Origin: Patescibacteria group bacterium
GTDB taxonomy: Bacteria; Patescibacteriota; Minisyncoccia; Phycocordibacterales; UBA1550
DNA: 56,005 bases
Assembly: GCA_038063615.1 (NCBI GenBank)
Contig: JBBTUT010000003.1
Span: 67,352-123,356 of the forward strand
Direction: 5' to 3'
Under the pieces are notes generated by a model, which had not been told where the DNA came from, searched no databases, and saw only the letters and a program-made list of their open reading frames with translations. Both the position numbers and the translations under genes were made by a program. Below are positions 701-38,216 of this stretch, piece after piece (position 1 is the stretch's first letter; every line of letters begins with the position of its first letter).

Positions 701-1261
701 ATGGAACTTTCTCGACAAATTGAAGCGCTTTTATTTTTCAAGGGCGAGCCGGTGACGGCGGGCTTTTTGGCGAAGACGCTTGGCGTGTCGGAGGACGAGG
801 TGCGCGGAGGACTGGCAGAGCTTGAGCAGGCGCTTTCTTTGCGGGGGATTATTTTGATGCGGAATGGTGACGAGTATACGCTCGGCACGGCACCGCAGAT
901 GGGTGTTACTATCGAGGCGCTTCTCAAGGATGAGTTGAGCAAAGACCTCGGCAAAGCGGGGCTCGAGACGCTCGCGACGGTGCTCTATCGCGGACCGATA
1001 TCGCGAAGCGAGATCAACTATCTTCGCGGGGTCAATTCGAATTACATTTTGCGCGCGCTTTTGGTGCGCGGGCTTATTGAGAAGGTGGATCAGGGAGGGC
1101 GGAGCACCACCTATCGCCCGACATTTGAGCTCTTGTCCTATATGGGCGTGGCAAAGGTCGAGGACTTGCCCGGGTATGAGGAAACGACAAAAGCGGTCGA
1201 GGAATTTAAGCAATCAGAAATAAACGATAAAGAAAACAAAAATGAACACGAGGAAGAATAG
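701..1261 (+). CDS. scpB: SMC-Scp complex subunit ScpB
   Basis: IEALLF...LETLATVLYRGPISRSEINYLRGVNS...Y.PT.ELL pattern. Confidence 0.92.
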   Translation: MELSRQIEALLFFKGEPVTAGFLAKTLGVSEDEVRGGLAELEQALSLRGIILMRNGDEYTLGTAPQMGVTIEALLKDELSKDLGKAGLETLATVLYRGPISRSEINYLRGVNSNYILRALLVRGLIEKVDQGGRSTTYRPTFELLSYMGVAKVEDLPGYEETTKAVEEFKQSEINDKENKNEHEEE

Positions 1262-2249
1262 GGAAGAGATTACCGCGAAGAAGCTGAGAGCGCTTGCGAT
1301 AGTGCTCGGCGGTGGCGCATTTCTTGCGGTATCACTGCAGACATTTCTTGTATCCGCGCTTCCCACGCAGGCGCAAATGCAGACGCAAGCGGATACTCAA
1401 GAGGAACTCCGCGCGCTTGCAACCGCAAATCCATTTGAAGATATTTCTCTCGAGGCGCGCGCCGTATTCGTTTTTGACCTCAAAAAAAGGTCGGTCCTTT
1501 TTGCGCGCAATGAAAACGAGAAGCTTCCCCTTGCGTCTGTCACAAAAATAATGACTGCGCTTGTCGCGCGAGAGCATATGAGTGAAAGTGTGGTAGCGAC
1601 ACTCACCGGCGATGATATTTCTGTGGAGGGCGACTCTGGGCTTCGCACCGGAGAGCGGTGGCGTTTGGGAGACCTCATCAGCGTCATGCTTCTCGTTTCG
1701 TCGAATGACGCGGCACATGCAGTGGCCGGCTTTGTGGGGAGCGAGGGACAGCCGAATGCGGACAGGGAAAATGCGCGAGTGAAATTCATCGGTATGATGA
1801 ATGAAAAAGCGCTCGCCCTCGGACTCGCTCAGACGCAATTTTTTAATGAATCGGGGCTTGATATCAAAGAGTTGCGGGCGGGCTTGCCCGTAGCTACCTC
1901 GGCAACGGCGGGCGGGTATGGTTCCGCGCACGATGTCGCGTTCCTTTTTGCGGAACTGTGGAATAATTATCCCGAGACGATCGAGATCACCGCGCGCAAA
2001 GACGCGCGCATCATTTCCCAAGACGACATCGCGCACATTCTTCCAAATACAAACGAGATAGTGGGAAAGATCTCCGGCCTTGTCGCTTCAAAGACAGGGT
2101 ACACCGATCTTGCCGGAGGGAACCTCGCCATCATTTTTGACCGCGGTATCGGCGACCCAGTTGTCGCAGTCGTCCTCGGCTCAACATACAAAGGCCGCTT
2201 TGACGATATGGAGAAGCTGGTGGAGGCGTCGCGCAAGACAGCAGAGTAA
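1242..2249 (+). CDS. D-alanyl-D-alanine carboxypeptidase (peptidase S11)
   Basis: N-terminal TM/signal; SxxK (ASVTK), SxN (SSN) and KTG motifs. Confidence 0.9.
   Translation: MNTRKNREEITAKKLRALAIVLGGGAFLAVSLQTFLVSALPTQAQMQTQADTQEELRALATANPFEDISLEARAVFVFDLKKRSVLFARNENEKLPLASVTKIMTALVAREHMSESVVATLTGDDISVEGDSGLRTGERWRLGDLISVMLLVSSNDAAHAVAGFVGSEGQPNADRENARVKFIGMMNEKALALGLAQTQFFNESGLDIKELRAGLPVATSATAGGYGSAHDVAFLFAELWNNYPETIEITARKDARIISQDDIAHILPNTNEIVGKISGLVASKTGYTDLAGGNLAIIFDRGIGDPVVAVVLGSTYKGRFDDMEKLVEASRKTAE
1883..1916 (+). repeat. Short variant of the CCTGCCCG...GGCAGGCGGG palindromic element, inside the S11 peptidase CDS
   Basis: CTTGCCCGTAGC-TACCTCG-GCAACGGCGGGCGGG; ends resemble the 54-bp copies in recR and uvrA. 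Confidence 0.5.
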
Positions 2250-30066: not shown

Positions 30067-30384
30067 TTACTTGATTGCCGCAATCTTCACTTTCATAAAT
30101 GGTTGGCGATGACCGTTCTTTTTGAAGTGACGGCTTTTTTGGCGGTAGTGGATAACCACAACTTTGTCCGCGCGACCTTCTTCTTCAAATGTCGCCTCCA
30201 CGGTTGCCCCGGGAACGAGCGGTGCGCCGACGAGGGTCTTTGAACCATCGTTTACAAGGAGGACTTGGTCAAAAACGACCTTGTCGCCCTTTTTTAATTC
30301 GCCGGGAAGCTTCTCGATGAGGAGCGTTTCGCCCGGAGCGACCTTATATTGCTTGCCTCCTGTCTTTATTACTGCAAAATTCAT
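30067..30384 (-). CDS. rplU: 50S ribosomal protein L21
   Basis: FAVIKTGGKQYKV...GHRQ. Confidence 0.96.
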   Translation of the reverse strand: MNFAVIKTGGKQYKVAPGETLLIEKLPGELKKGDKVVFDQVLLVNDGSKTLVGAPLVPGATVEATFEEEGRADKVVVIHYRQKSRHFKKNGHRQPFMKVKIAAIK

Positions 30385-30433
30385 AGTAACTTGTATTCTA
30401 CACGATAAAAAAAGAAATGCAAGCGTTTTGGCA

Positions 30434-30468
30434 GAATATTGAATATAGAATGTTGAATATAGAATGGA
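30434..30468. repeat. Heptamer tandem repeat (GAATATA-like x4-5)
   Basis: GAATATT GAATATA GAATGTT GAATATA GAATGGA between the divergent rplU and ncRNA promoters. Confidence 0.7.
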
Positions 30469-30489
30469 TTCAGAACAAAAAACAGAAAT

Positions 30490-30518
30490 TTGACAAAAAT
30501 ACGACAATCTGCTACTAT
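30490..30518 (+). promoter_or_regulatory. Sigma70-type promoter for the putative ncRNA
   Basis: TTGACA(30490)-17 nt-TACTAT(30513) with extended TG; no + strand CDS follows. Confidence 0.75.
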
Positions 30519-30524
30519 CCAATA

Positions 30525-30681
30525 AGTCAGGGTGCTCGAAACAGTCTTTCCCCTCCTCCTGCATTGAGGTAATTCATTTAAGGGTTTAAACCTGCCCTTA
30601 ATTTGAGAGAGACTCAAGCAGGTGTTGTTAGAGCACCCTGGCTACTTTTTGTACAAAGCACGCTTCGCGTGCTTTTTTTTT
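30525..30681 (+). ncRNA. Putative structured small RNA with exposed anti-SD-like bulge (novel, or a divergent 6S RNA)
   Basis: Own promoter; long hairpin 30525-30643 (AGTCAGGGTGCTC/GAGCACCCTGGCT, AACA/TGTT, CCTGC/GCAGG, TTGAG/CTCAA, TAAGGG/CCCTTA); + oriented terminator between two minus-strand genes. Confidence 0.7.
30655..30681 (+). terminator. Intrinsic terminator on the + strand
   Basis: AAAGCACGC-TTC-GCGTGC followed by T9. Confidence 0.8.
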
Positions 30682-30701
30682 GCCAATTTTTAGAGTTGGC
30701 C

Positions 30702-31814
30702 TTACTCCTCAAGATGCGGTTTTTCGATAAGGAGCGGCTCTATCCCCGCAGTTTCGCCCGTGATCTTCACGACATCCTTGTCCACCTTTTTGAGCTCCTT
30801 ATATGCTGCGGTATAGTGGTTGACCGTGGTTCCCAGCGCATTGCCGAGTTTTTTCATATAGTCCTCATAGGCGACCAAGTGCTTGCGAAGCTCCTCCACG
30901 CGCCCAATGATGAGCTGTGCGGACTCCTCAATCTTGAAAGCGCGAAAACCATAGAGCACTGATTGCAAGTATGCGGAAAATGTCGTCGGAGATACGATGA
31001 TGACTTTCTTTTCGTTCGACGCATAGTCGATGAGCGAGCGTGTATTCACTTTCACCGCGCCGACTTCGTTGATGAGGAGGTCGTAGTAGATGCCCTCGGC
31101 GGGAATGAACATAAACGCAAACGGCAGCGTGCCTTCGGCGGGACGCACATATTTCGCGGTCTCATCGATGCGTTTTTTGAGGTCGTTCCTGAATTCTTTT
31201 TCGAGCTCTTCTTTTCGCGTTTCATCCGATTCATTCACCACGCGATTGTAATTGTCGAGAGAAAATTTCGCGTCTACGGGGATCAATCCGTCTTTGGTAA
31301 TGATGACCGCATCCACCGTCTCGCCATTTTTGAATTGATGCTGGAGCTTATACGCATTTGGCGGGAGAATGTTTGAGAGAATGAGCTCGAGCGCCGCCTC
31401 TCCCAAGTTCCCTCTCTGTTTTTGGTGCTTCAAAACTTTTTCGAGATTTTGAAGCTGGTCGGTGATGCCGAGGACTTGCTTACTCGTTTCGTTCGCCGCG
31501 GTCATTTCCTTTGCGACATTTGAGAGATTGCGCTCGACCTGCTCATTGATCTCGCGGATAAGCTTTTGCGATTCGCTAAACTGCATATGCACCGCCTGTT
31601 GCATTTCTTTATTCGACGAGCCGACTTTCGCATCGACCGTTTTCATAAAATCGCCCAACTGCGACTGGAAATTGCCGATCTGGTTTTGAATGAGGCGAAG
31701 TGCGTCATTTTGCGGTTCGGTCGAAACTTCTTTTTTACGAAGGAGTGTTACCAATACCACCGCAACAATTGCGCCGAGGATGAGTCCAATAAGGATGTAA
31801 GCAATTGACGACAT
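30702..31814 (-). CDS. rmuC: DNA recombination protein RmuC
   Basis: N-terminal TM, coiled coil, RGNLGE..L, PVDAKF, FMFIP.EG, VSPTT. Confidence 0.9.
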   Translation of the reverse strand: MSSIAYILIGLILGAIVAVVLVTLLRKKEVSTEPQNDALRLIQNQIGNFQSQLGDFMKTVDAKVGSSNKEMQQAVHMQFSESQKLIREINEQVERNLSNVAKEMTAANETSKQVLGITDQLQNLEKVLKHQKQRGNLGEAALELILSNILPPNAYKLQHQFKNGETVDAVIITKDGLIPVDAKFSLDNYNRVVNESDETRKEELEKEFRNDLKKRIDETAKYVRPAEGTLPFAFMFIPAEGIYYDLLINEVGAVKVNTRSLIDYASNEKKVIIVSPTTFSAYLQSVLYGFRAFKIEESAQLIIGRVEELRKHLVAYEDYMKKLGNALGTTVNHYTAAYKELKKVDKDVVKITGETAGIEPLLIEKPHLEE

Positions 31815-31815
31815 A

Positions 31816-32013
31816 TTATATTCCATATGCACTTCCGAGTGTGGTCAAAAATGCGGGGATTACGAACACGAGCCCCACGAGCGGAAGAAGTACGACCGCG
31901 ACACTGATGATAAGCGTCCACATAAAATACTTGCGCGTCTTTTCCGCCGAAACGAACACTTTTTGCAAAAGCTCTTCTTGCGCCTGCAGGCGATTCAAAA
32001 TTTCTTGTTCCAT
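31816..32013 (-). CDS. Small membrane protein
   Basis: 65 aa, amphipathic N-terminus plus TM; TAGAAT 6 nt upstream of the ATG. Confidence 0.7.
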   Translation of the reverse strand: MEQEILNRLQAQEELLQKVFVSAEKTRKYFMWTLIISVAVVLLPLVGLVFVIPAFLTTLGSAYGI

Positions 32014-32091: not shown

Positions 32092-32694
32092 TTACTCCAC
32101 CTTTTTTGTCACTTCGCCCGCCTCTCTCATGCGGGCTTTGTCTTCGTACATCGCTTGGTCTGCGCGATGCATCAGCGTTGAGGCGGTCGTACAGTCAGGA
32201 CCCGCTGTGCCCACTCCCATTGCTGCCTGAATGGCGAAAGTCTGACCTTCACCAATCTCGAAGATTTCGTCCCTGAGATTATTCTTTATGGTAGCAACAA
32301 ATTCGAGGGCCTCTTCTTCTCTGGCATAAGGCATGAGAACGGCAAATTCGTCTCCGCCGAGACGCGCCAGAGTGATAAGAATGCCACTCTCGCCGAGAAT
32401 ATCTTTTTGTCTTTTTAGAAATTCGCTGAACTGAATCAGCAATAAATTTCCGTGTAGATGTCCAATCGTATTATTGATATCCGCAAATCCATTGATATCC
32501 ATAAAAATCAACGATGCTGGTGACTGCTTATTAAGCAAGTGCTGTGCCTCCTCGACAAGCTGAAATCTCTTCGGAAGACCGGTGAGGTCATCCATCTGGG
32601 CGATCCTCAGATTTGCCTTGAGGTCGGCGATTTCACGGTCCTTCGCCTCGATGATCGCCCGCAACTTTTGCGGGTCATTTATTGTTTTGCTCAA
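32092..32694 (-). CDS. Diguanylate cyclase (coiled coil + GGDEF)
   Basis: D.LTGL, DINGF..IN...GH..G, RLGGDEF, AD.AMY..K; TTG start with AAGGAGGT SD. Confidence 0.9.
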   Translation of the reverse strand: MSKTINDPQKLRAIIEAKDREIADLKANLRIAQMDDLTGLPKRFQLVEEAQHLLNKQSPASLIFMDINGFADINNTIGHLHGNLLLIQFSEFLKRQKDILGESGILITLARLGGDEFAVLMPYAREEEALEFVATIKNNLRDEIFEIGEGQTFAIQAAMGVGTAGPDCTTASTLMHRADQAMYEDKARMREAGEVTKKVE

Positions 32695-32959: not shown

Positions 32960-33090
32960 ATTCCCTCCTTTTTTATAGAACAAATTAATTATCTGATACA
33001 AGTATACCATATATCGCATACAAGCGTCAAGCTTTGTGTTTTGTGTAAAAAACATTATAATGAAAGAACTATTTATAATATATTTTTATT

Positions 33091-37632: not shown

Positions 37633-37697
37633 CAAAATTAGAATAGTTACGACAAATCCGACAAAAATCGGAAATACATTGAAAAATGGAGGGGAAA

Positions 37698-38216
37698 ATG
37701 AAGATCTCAACGAAGATTTCAAAAAAAGGGAAAAAAGGGGAAATTGTTACAACAAGGGTTTCTACGAAAAGAGTCATCTTAAAAAAGATGCTCAAAAAAG
37801 AGATGCTGCTCGTTCTCGTTGAACGAGTTAAAAAGGAACTGCATGAGGACCTCGACCCGAAGAACTGCGAGAGCATCGGGAGTTTACACCTCGTTGGCGC
37901 GGTTGTCTCCCCTTATCTTTTAAAATTCGGAGTGGTCAACGAAGCAGAGGGCACATGGACTGCAAAGAAAGAGAAAAAGATAATATTATTCGAATTGTTC
38001 TCCGGTGTCGGCAACAATGCGTGTGATGACGAGGGGAATATGTATTTTTTACTGAAAGTTCCTCGCCGTGGAGAGTTCTTTGTGAGACTCGGGGAAAAGT
38101 TTGAAATAGTGAGGCATATCCCTGTTTCCGTTGCGACAGATATTGCAAACGGCCTATTGTTGGACTATTTCTTTAAAGCGTTAAAAAAGGAACAACGCGC
38201 ACATCTAGAAGGTTAG
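37698..38216 (+). CDS. Hypothetical protein with basic N-terminus
   Basis: GGAGGGGAAA immediately before ATG 37698; own promoter and terminator. Confidence 0.7.
   Translation: MKISTKISKKGKKGEIVTTRVSTKRVILKKMLKKEMLLVLVERVKKELHEDLDPKNCESIGSLHLVGAVVSPYLLKFGVVNEAEGTWTAKKEKKIILFELFSGVGNNACDDEGNMYFLLKVPRRGEFFVRLGEKFEIVRHIPVSVATDIANGLLLDYFFKALKKEQRAHLEG

Follow-up and report, generated by a model that had tools for sequence, protein, structure and literature searches.

The question raised by this locus is what a stand-alone small RNA (sRNA) that displays CCUCC could be doing in a bacterium whose own 16S ribosomal RNA lacks that motif. The RNA gene occupies positions 30490-30681, on the plus strand, of the 56,005-nucleotide (nt) stretch of DNA from a Patescibacteria group bacterium that was analysed here (the window), and it lies in the gap between two minus-strand genes, rplU and rmuC; coordinates are positions in the window unless a contig name (G000:contig) or a locus name precedes them. 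Our answer is that the gene belongs to a new, genus-restricted and fast-evolving sRNA family of a known functional kind. As to its action, we lend slightly more belief than disbelief to the reading that it is a stand-alone, trans-acting antisense sRNA whose C-rich seed would occlude the G-rich start regions of a limited regulon, independently of a chaperone.

The unit opens with a sigma-70-type promoter (30490..30518, plus strand), found by pattern scan: a -35 box TTGACA (30490-30495), a spacer of 17 nt and a -10 box TACTAT (30513-30518) that is extended by TG at 30510-30511 (TGcTACTAT, 30510-30518), with 10 of 12 consensus matches. The transcription start would fall at 30525, 7 nt past the -10 box, which is the first base of a 119-nt rod (30525-30643), and the predicted transcript of about 157 nt (30525..30681, plus strand) has its 3' end placed in a run of nine T residues (T9). 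The rod has a minimum free energy (MFE) of -52.9 kcal/mol (z = -6.48), a stability reached by 0 of 200 dinucleotide shuffles, and the whole unit of 157 nt including the terminator has an MFE of -65.7 kcal/mol (z = -7.37). Folding closes the rod with the 13-base-pair (bp) stem P1 (30525-30537 with 30631-30643), followed inwards by the 5-bp stem P2 (5' strand AACAG, 30540-30544 with 30625-30629) and by P3 (5' strand CCUGC, 30558-30562, with GCAGG, 30618-30622), the 3' strands of P3, P2 and P1 together occupying 30618..30643. The element of greatest interest is a one-sided C/U-rich bulge, UCUUUCCCCUCCU (30545..30557), the putative seed, which holds two overlapping copies of CCUCC running into P3. 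Its 11-nt core UCUUUCCCCUC (30545-30555) is unpaired in both the MFE and the centroid structure, with a per-base unpaired probability of 0.95-1.00; at its edges, G30544 closes P2 and C30556 sits in a lone pair (unpaired probability 0.45).

Beyond P3, the rod is capped by a variable apical domain of nested, branched hairpins (30563..30617), and behind it a U-rich single-stranded linker, CUACUUUUUGU (30644..30654), leads to an intrinsic terminator (30655..30681), seen by folding and pattern scan, with a 9-bp stem (30655-30675), a 3-nt UUC loop and T9. No credible open reading frame (ORF) lies inside the unit, since the overlapping frames start upstream of the promoter or run antisense. An initial annotation, made from the letters alone, had read the near-consensus promoter, the start at about 30525, the 119-nt rod closed over 13 bp, the plus-oriented terminator and the lack of an ORF in the same way, and on all of these the scans and the folding agree with it; it had also drawn the one-sided unpaired bulge, with limits (30544-30557) that prove one to two bases too wide. 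With a promoter and an intrinsic terminator of its own and without an ORF, the unit is built as a stand-alone gene, like those of the C-rich-seed class of sRNAs. Of the contigs from four DNA sequencing runs compared with 30380-30720, three carry the sRNA stretch with 0 differences (the X10 contig ends at 30665, inside the terminator) and the fourth, of 151 nt, has 2 differences, which yields no usable within-species variation.

A blastn search of the window RNA against 60 relatives gave 0 matches, and it is the position of the gene that reveals its family. When the rplU loci of 28 relatives from the genus are compared, with the DNA upstream of rplU read in the window orientation, 15 of 24 informative loci prove to have a unit of promoter, structured RNA of 64-255 nt and intrinsic terminator at the equivalent site, pointing the same way; of the remainder, four loci are cut by contig ends, one is ambiguous (L022) and 8 of the 24 are without the unit, a count that concerns this locus only and does not exclude other locations in those genomes. 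The promoter layout, TTGACA(AAA)-N17 and then a -10 box (TTGACAAAA-N17), recurs in 15 relatives. Most of the longer relatives are modular: a 5' hairpin with the loop (C)CUCCC(U) comes first, joined in the long forms by a central hairpin that brings another such stretch, CUCCCCU, and then follow a conserved CCCACUUUUUACCAC...GACCACCC module (module C) and a terminator whose loop is often CCCCCUUU. Module C is found only in this genus (2 of 4 other sampled genus genomes, and 0 of 296 genomes from other genera of the order). Within it, CCCACUUUUUACCAC is a second conserved single-stranded motif, whose sequence is kept while its pairing partner changes between relatives; the motif is absent from the window RNA, whose linker CUACUUUUUGU may be a diverged version of it, a likeness judged by eye alone. 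Because the MAFFT alignment of the relatives' 3' modules is not structure-aware, RNAalifold gave just 6 pairs for them.

A metagenome scan with the L21 protein, in which metagenome loci identical to genome loci were counted once, adds three loci (L070, L072 and L085) to the homologues near rplU for which the initial annotation had proposed to look. L072 is of the L003 type, with the loop UAACCUCCCUA, and L085 (L21 69% identical) has a hairpin with the loop GUCUACCCCCGA plus a terminator, also between rplU and rmuC. L070 (L21 97% identical) is a true homologue of the window RNA and folds into the same architecture. By hand count, 12 of the 13 pairs of P1 are kept in it (one A-U to G-C double change, three one-sided changes, one break), as are 5 of 5 in P2 (two one-sided changes), and in P3 the pair CCUGC/GCAGG is replaced at the same place, in compensatory fashion, by CCUUAC/GUAAGG. 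The bulge, which is UCUUUCCCCUCC in the window, corresponds to UCUUUACCCUCC in L070, with AGUCUUU-N-CCCUCC kept. About 55 nt of the rod interior are replaced and cannot be aligned between the two, and the architecture of the apical domain is unlike that of the relatives.

The same exposed motif emerges from the family as a whole. Counts were made in 18 family RNAs (2,896 nt without U tails; L022 and L027 were left out as their structure or coding status is unclear, and some members are closely related) and set against expectations from the genome rate. CCUCC is observed 14 times where 3.1 are expected, CUCCC 21 times (2.6 expected) and CCCCC 14 times (1.8 expected), an over-representation of 4.5- to 8-fold; GGAGG is observed once (3.1 expected) and GGGAG twice (2.6 expected). 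At least one C-rich pentamer is present in 17 of the 18 RNAs, and in 14 of 18 one lies within the first 50 nt, in CUCCC or CCUCC loops with a mean unpaired probability of at least 0.77. Predicted unpaired bases in the family are 34% C, 35% U, 23% A and 8% G, and 33% of the paired bases are G. As in the C-rich-seed class, the C-rich motif is single-stranded in the predicted folds and conserved where the rest has diverged. An exposed, G-depleted C-rich stretch that persists amid such turnover is, as far as sequences and predicted folds can tell, the signature of a base-pairing seed, and the view that this is an unannotated stand-alone small RNA with the C/U-rich stretch as its conserved, probably functional part has held up well.

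A protein could also be the reader of such a display. Loop-borne CUCCC or CCUCC, in 1 to 4 copies per RNA, might titrate a pyrimidine-binding protein, for example a KH protein of the KhpA/B type, of which one is encoded at G000:C2:25220-25432. In the long family members, 2-4 C-rich motifs are distributed over different loops, those of terminators among them, and CCCACUUUUUACCAC keeps its sequence despite a changing pairing partner, as expected of a protein site. A C-rich preference of KhpA/B would be an extrapolation from other KH proteins that are associated with C-rich RNA. Such an RNA would recall CsrB and RsmZ, which display GGA for CsrA, in that a short motif is repeated in several hairpin loops of the longer members, the motif here being CUCCC and not GGA. 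However, the window RNA shows a single exposed C-rich stretch and has no CCCACUUUUUACCAC motif, and no partner protein is linked through gene position, which makes a protein sponge unlikely in our eyes.

Is the RNA, alternatively, a known one in disguise? A scan of the entire window against Rfam 15 at gathering scores yields 0 matches, as does one of 16 relatives' loci, and at E <= 10 a 361-nt region around the gene yields chance terminator-type matches alone, with no 6S, signal recognition particle (SRP), RsaE/RoxS (RF01820) or 6C (RF01066) RNA among them. In the genome (751 kb, 28 contigs, 95% complete), the 16S and 23S rRNAs, the RNase P RNA and the transfer-messenger RNA (tmRNA) are all recognisable, and no match is found in the whole genome at E <= 10 to 6S (RF00013) or to small and large SRP RNA (RF00169, RF01854); for small SRP RNA, 0 of 29 genus genomes match at E <= 1. 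The SRP RNA of the lineage must be highly divergent or missing. A divergent housekeeping RNA at this locus would fill that gap, since neither 6S nor SRP RNA is detectable elsewhere in the genome, and the rod has a size that suits a 4.5S-type RNA and, as in 6S RNA, is closed by a long stem and comes with a promoter and a terminator of its own. The details speak for a different molecule. The rod measures 119 nt as opposed to about 180 nt, and it has a one-sided 11-nt bulge, in the window RNA as in L070, in place of the two-sided central bubble of 6S RNA; a GNRA-capped helix with SRP loops is not seen by eye, and even at E <= 10 the 361-nt region matches neither family. Moreover, the unit is missing from a third of the informative loci (8 of 24) and is not conserved across the genus, its members spanning 64-255 nt with differing architectures, and it is therefore unlike an essential RNA. 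We give this explanation very little credence, and with it the short, divergent 6S RNA that the initial annotation had entertained.

For a C-rich seed, the state of the ribosome matters. After helix 45, the 16S rRNA (G000:C2:105406-107125, minus strand, locus L032) ends in GUGAAUCAAUUCAAAA, where the usual tail is GGAUCACCUCCUUU, so that CCUCC, which the initial annotation had advised to look for at this end, is lacking. The same tail closes every 3' end recovered in the genus, those of this genome and of 16 relatives; from G006, a 17th relative that had a blast match, come contig fragments and a divergent copy, none with CCUCC and none with the common-type tail. Loss of the anti-Shine-Dalgarno (anti-SD) motif in some Parcubacteria is already published: Tsurumaki et al. 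found the motif in just 48% of Parcubacteria and tied its loss to the group lacking uL1 (PMC9297842). In the present genome, uL1 was not found.

The region downstream of this 16S gene has features of its own. A CCCUCCC at +81 of the 16S trailer was considered as a displaced anti-SD and rejected, as its variable bases co-vary within a helix (by eye) and its variants do not track the SD counts. Between the 16S tail and the terminator (L032 ~1215-1500, minus strand, equivalent to G000:C2 ~105120-105405) lies an RNA of about 290 nt that is conserved in the genus and looks structured. The 16S tail pairs with a downstream UGAAUUGGU, and two pairs of pseudoknot-like helices show covariation among the relatives (AGAUG/CAUCU with GGYYC/GRRCC, and CCCUU/AAGGG with ACCGG/CCGGU). 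This RNA has no Rfam match and is distinct from the 23S rRNA, which is 13 kb away.

Most genes of this bacterium do not look SD-led. In a set of 691 ORFs of at least 100 amino acids (aa), each taken from its first start codon, which makes the starts crude, there is no G peak upstream of the starts, and TAnnnT boxes peak 6-18 nt before them, as in leaderless genes. SD-like pentamers are nevertheless enriched at -13 to -7, with 20 at position -11 against about 2 per position further upstream, and their carriers number 42 of 681 ORFs with a wider motif set and 39 of 681 with a narrower one, or about 6% of genes. Many of these sites are a perfect AAGGAGGT, and AAGGAGG-N4-9-ATG occurs 59 times in the genome as compared with 14 times in the reversed control. 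Both the leaderless character of many core genes, which the promoter of rplU also exhibits, and the SD-led minority beside them had been foreseen in the initial annotation.

The SD-led genes are a mixture of hypothetical proteins and enzymes. They are not a foreign island, as their GC content (0.469 as compared with 0.481, p = 0.046) is reduced just marginally and they do not cluster, with 2 adjacent pairs where 2.1 are expected. At G000:C3:42902-51440 lies a group of SD-led genes that, judged by eye from the translations, encode an ABC-F-type ATPase and two proteins resembling class-II aminoacyl-tRNA synthetases. The SD-led lysyl-tRNA-synthetase-like gene G000:C3:50041 is clearly an acquired extra copy: a close orthologue of it is missing from 28 relatives, and what it matches best, at ~40% identity, is the housekeeping enzyme. 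The genome's own housekeeping lysyl-tRNA synthetase (C11:22529) is without an SD. By hand comparison, the canonical 16S tail offers the commonest SD, AAGGAGGUG, 9 nt of pairing and the sRNA just 6 nt, and this better fit to the canonical tail suggests that many SDs came with acquired genes.

These observations bear on the boldest interpretation of the locus, in which the RNA would lend its CCUCC to a ribosome without an anti-SD and so enable SD-led translation in trans. In its favour are the absence of CCUCC from all 16S tails recovered in the genus, the enrichment of canonical SDs together with their conservation at a GGDEF gene described below, and the two overlapping copies of CCUCC in the sRNA. 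The fit of AAGGAGGUG tells against it, as do several of the 8 of 24 relatives without the RNA at the locus, which match this genome in their number of SD-led genes. Furthermore, no RNA segment conserved in the family is complementary, by eye, to the invariant 16S tail, and the rod interior is not conserved even in the closest homologue. No stand-alone RNA with a canonical GAUCACCUCCUU tail was seen among the CACCTCCT sites. We know of no precedent for an adaptor RNA that supplies an anti-SD in trans, and we regard the idea as highly improbable.

There is, at the same time, a clear sign that some GGAGG elements matter in this genus, and it comes from the neighbourhood of the sRNA. The GGDEF gene (32092-32694, minus strand; Pfam GGDEF, E = 9e-27) carries GGAGG 7 nt before its start at 32694. 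Judging from gene order, it likely forms an operon with a 65-aa ORF and rmuC (30702-31832, minus strand; Pfam RmuC, E = 2.5e-52), all co-directional and converging on the sRNA terminator. Orthologues or homologues of the GGDEF gene occur in 8 relatives with 30-45% identity, at least 6 of them within a few kb of rplU, and 9 of 9 GGDEF genes (the window and L180-L187) have (A)GGAGG at a distance of 4-8 nt upstream of the start, in sequence that is otherwise unrelated. The core gene tgt, used as a control (75-86% identity), has a -10 box right before its ATG and an SD-like motif in 3 of 23 orthologues. Since GGAGG is kept in all nine GGDEF genes though the 16S rRNA cannot pair with it, some GGAGG elements are functional, and the comparison argues that GGAGG at this gene is under selection in a genus without an anti-SD. 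With CCUCC exposed twice and a conserved neighbourhood shared with the GGDEF gene, the sRNA is the natural candidate for its reader. One could go further and suppose that the surviving GGAGG elements have been kept as sRNA response elements and not as ribosome-binding sites, SD/anti-SD pairing having moved from the ribosome to a riboregulator; we think this unlikely.

The arrangement of the genes also invites the thought that the unit acts only on its neighbours, as a promoter or two-way terminator that insulates or interferes with the rplU promoter and the GGDEF-rmuC operon, the RNA itself being without a role. The distances are short enough to make one consider it: about 70 nt separate the sRNA promoter from the divergent one of rplU, and 21 nt the sRNA terminator from the stop codon (30702) of the convergent rmuC. 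The gene rplU (30067-30384, minus strand), identified from its translation and the relatives' loci, has the promoter TTGCAT-17-TAGAAT (30385-30425, minus strand). With about 10 nt between the end of the -10 box and the ATG, the gene has a very short leader or none; all the relatives' loci listed preserve this box and its spacing. A purely local element, however, fails to explain the conserved exposed C-rich motif, the G-depleted loops and the compensatory changes in the rod, and the RNA has no antisense overlap with either neighbour, which leaves this explanation decidedly improbable.

The intergenic region further contains an array of heptamer repeats (TGAATAT/AGAATGT type) at 30430-30466, 25 nt upstream of the -35 box of the sRNA. 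The genome has such arrays at over 40 further sites, where they often form inverted pairs with about 100 nt between them, and another one lies directly upstream of the tmRNA gene (G000:C12:4649-4747). Over the stretch 30430-30466, contig depth is 5-8x higher in other samples. The arrays may be a regulator-binding or promoter-upstream element.

We return to the reading that we favour, a trans-acting antisense sRNA with a C-rich seed. A sigma-70-type promoter of its own would drive transcription of an RNA of about 157 nt in the direction away from rplU, with its end just before rmuC. The rod of P1, P2 and P3 would present the pyrimidine seed UCUUUCCCCUCCU, of 11-13 nt, as a one-sided bulge, and the seed would pair with G-rich stretches such as GGAGG and GGGAG around the start codons of some messenger RNAs (mRNAs) without the help of Hfq or ProQ, the pairing blocking initiation or altering mRNA stability. 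Because the host 16S rRNA is without CCUCC, the sRNA would meet no competition from a ribosomal anti-SD at these sites. Neither Hfq nor ProQ was found in the genome, and a chaperone-independent, G-C-rich pairing of the 6C type is therefore to be expected. Among the candidate targets, the GGDEF-rmuC operon is the strongest; the others are the ORF at 37698 and the PlsC-like gene G000:C3:29827. A further candidate, rplU itself, was rejected as a conserved target, as the GGAGG in its Gly-Gly codons is not kept and most relatives, along with L070, read GGTGG.

Several observations weigh against this reading and keep our confidence in check, for the specific tests of the sRNA as a reader of GGAGG all came out neutral or negative. 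Sites of at least 10 nt complementary to the seed number 39 (non-self) as against 25 in the reversed-sequence control, which is not a clear enrichment. For that reason, the 10/10 complement GGAGGGGAAA at 37688-37697, on which the initial annotation had leaned, is a real site without significance by itself. GAGGGG before ORF 22658 and AGGAGGG before ORF 32959 (32963-32969, minus strand) are likewise present as described, and its caveat that any C/U-rich loop will match SD sites was well placed: complementarity past the core motif is not enriched, and target prediction from such a loop is unspecific. Across 29 genus genomes, the excess of AAGGAGG-N4-9-ATG over its control ranges from zero to about 45 sites in a genome, irrespective of whether the RNA stands at the locus. 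Genomes without it there have counts of 30 against 7 in the control (G013), 54 against 14 (G025), 43 against 11 (G028) and 50 against 16 (G004), and genomes with it have 17 against 16 (G027), 17 against 15 (G022) and 19 against 14 (G007). In G025, moreover, GGAGG is retained before the GGDEF gene without the RNA at the locus. Duplex energies for seven sRNA/GGDEF pairs, by a method that ignores intramolecular structure, are equal for cognate and non-cognate pairs (-22.4 and -21.6 kcal/mol), and in G006, with its C7 seed, G6 before ATG is not exceptional (39, control 24). No RNA sequencing run was listed as containing the sRNA stretch. Finally, the covariation in the rod comes from two sequences, L070 being the one close homologue, and is therefore a matter of consistency and not of statistical proof.

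What these results leave without support in the initial annotation is the notion of a global switch. For an RNA that gates the whole SD-led class, or supplies it with an anti-SD in trans, the unfavourable observations are the SD counts that do not track the RNA, G025, the fit of AAGGAGGUG to the canonical tail and the want of a conserved dock on the 16S tail. Occlusion of SD-like sites, which it had offered as one of two modes, is by analogy the most likely one, as it is the known mode of C-rich-seed sRNAs. A modest share of our belief goes to explanations other than those weighed here.

A close analogue is 6C sRNA (also called B11; RF01066) of the actinobacteria, whose hosts have many leaderless genes. 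It too is a short stand-alone sRNA with a C-rich seed for G-rich mRNA sites, a pairing that is proposed in the present case. The C-rich loops of 6C pair with G-rich mRNA sites through multiple G-C pairs, without Hfq or ProQ (PMC6486639). The two differ in that 6C has two hairpin loops where the present RNA has a one-sided bulge in a rod; they also belong to different phyla, the present host has a 16S rRNA without an anti-SD, and its RNA has no match in Rfam. RsaE/RoxS (RF01820) of the Firmicutes and the Rsa RNAs of Staphylococcus with a UCCC motif are similar in their unpaired C-rich motifs, their own promoter and their intrinsic terminator. The target sites of RsaE/RoxS lie at SD regions, and the relatives' terminator loops CCCCCUUU resemble the RsaE repeat. 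G-rich motifs are mentioned for target mRNAs of this group (PMC6158497). In contrast to RsaE, which is highly conserved across the Firmicutes, the present family changes its architecture within one genus, its module C was found in that genus only and Rfam again has no match. By this analogy, the RNA would work like 6C and RsaE/RoxS while being a member of neither.

For the biology of these bacteria, the locus provides a well-delimited candidate sRNA family with a clear putative seed. In a full-text literature search, judged by titles and the beginnings of abstracts, no regulatory small RNA appears to have been described in Parcubacteria. If the RNA is merely an ordinary sRNA with a C-rich seed, it would be a modest addition, bringing a known mechanism to a new phylum. 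Should SD pairing indeed have been repurposed, the sRNA, as the cell's carrier of an exposed CCUCC, would switch the SD-led class of genes on or off as a block. A lineage without an anti-SD in its 16S rRNA still keeps canonical GGAGG before some of its genes; these elements need some reader, and this RNA is a concrete candidate.

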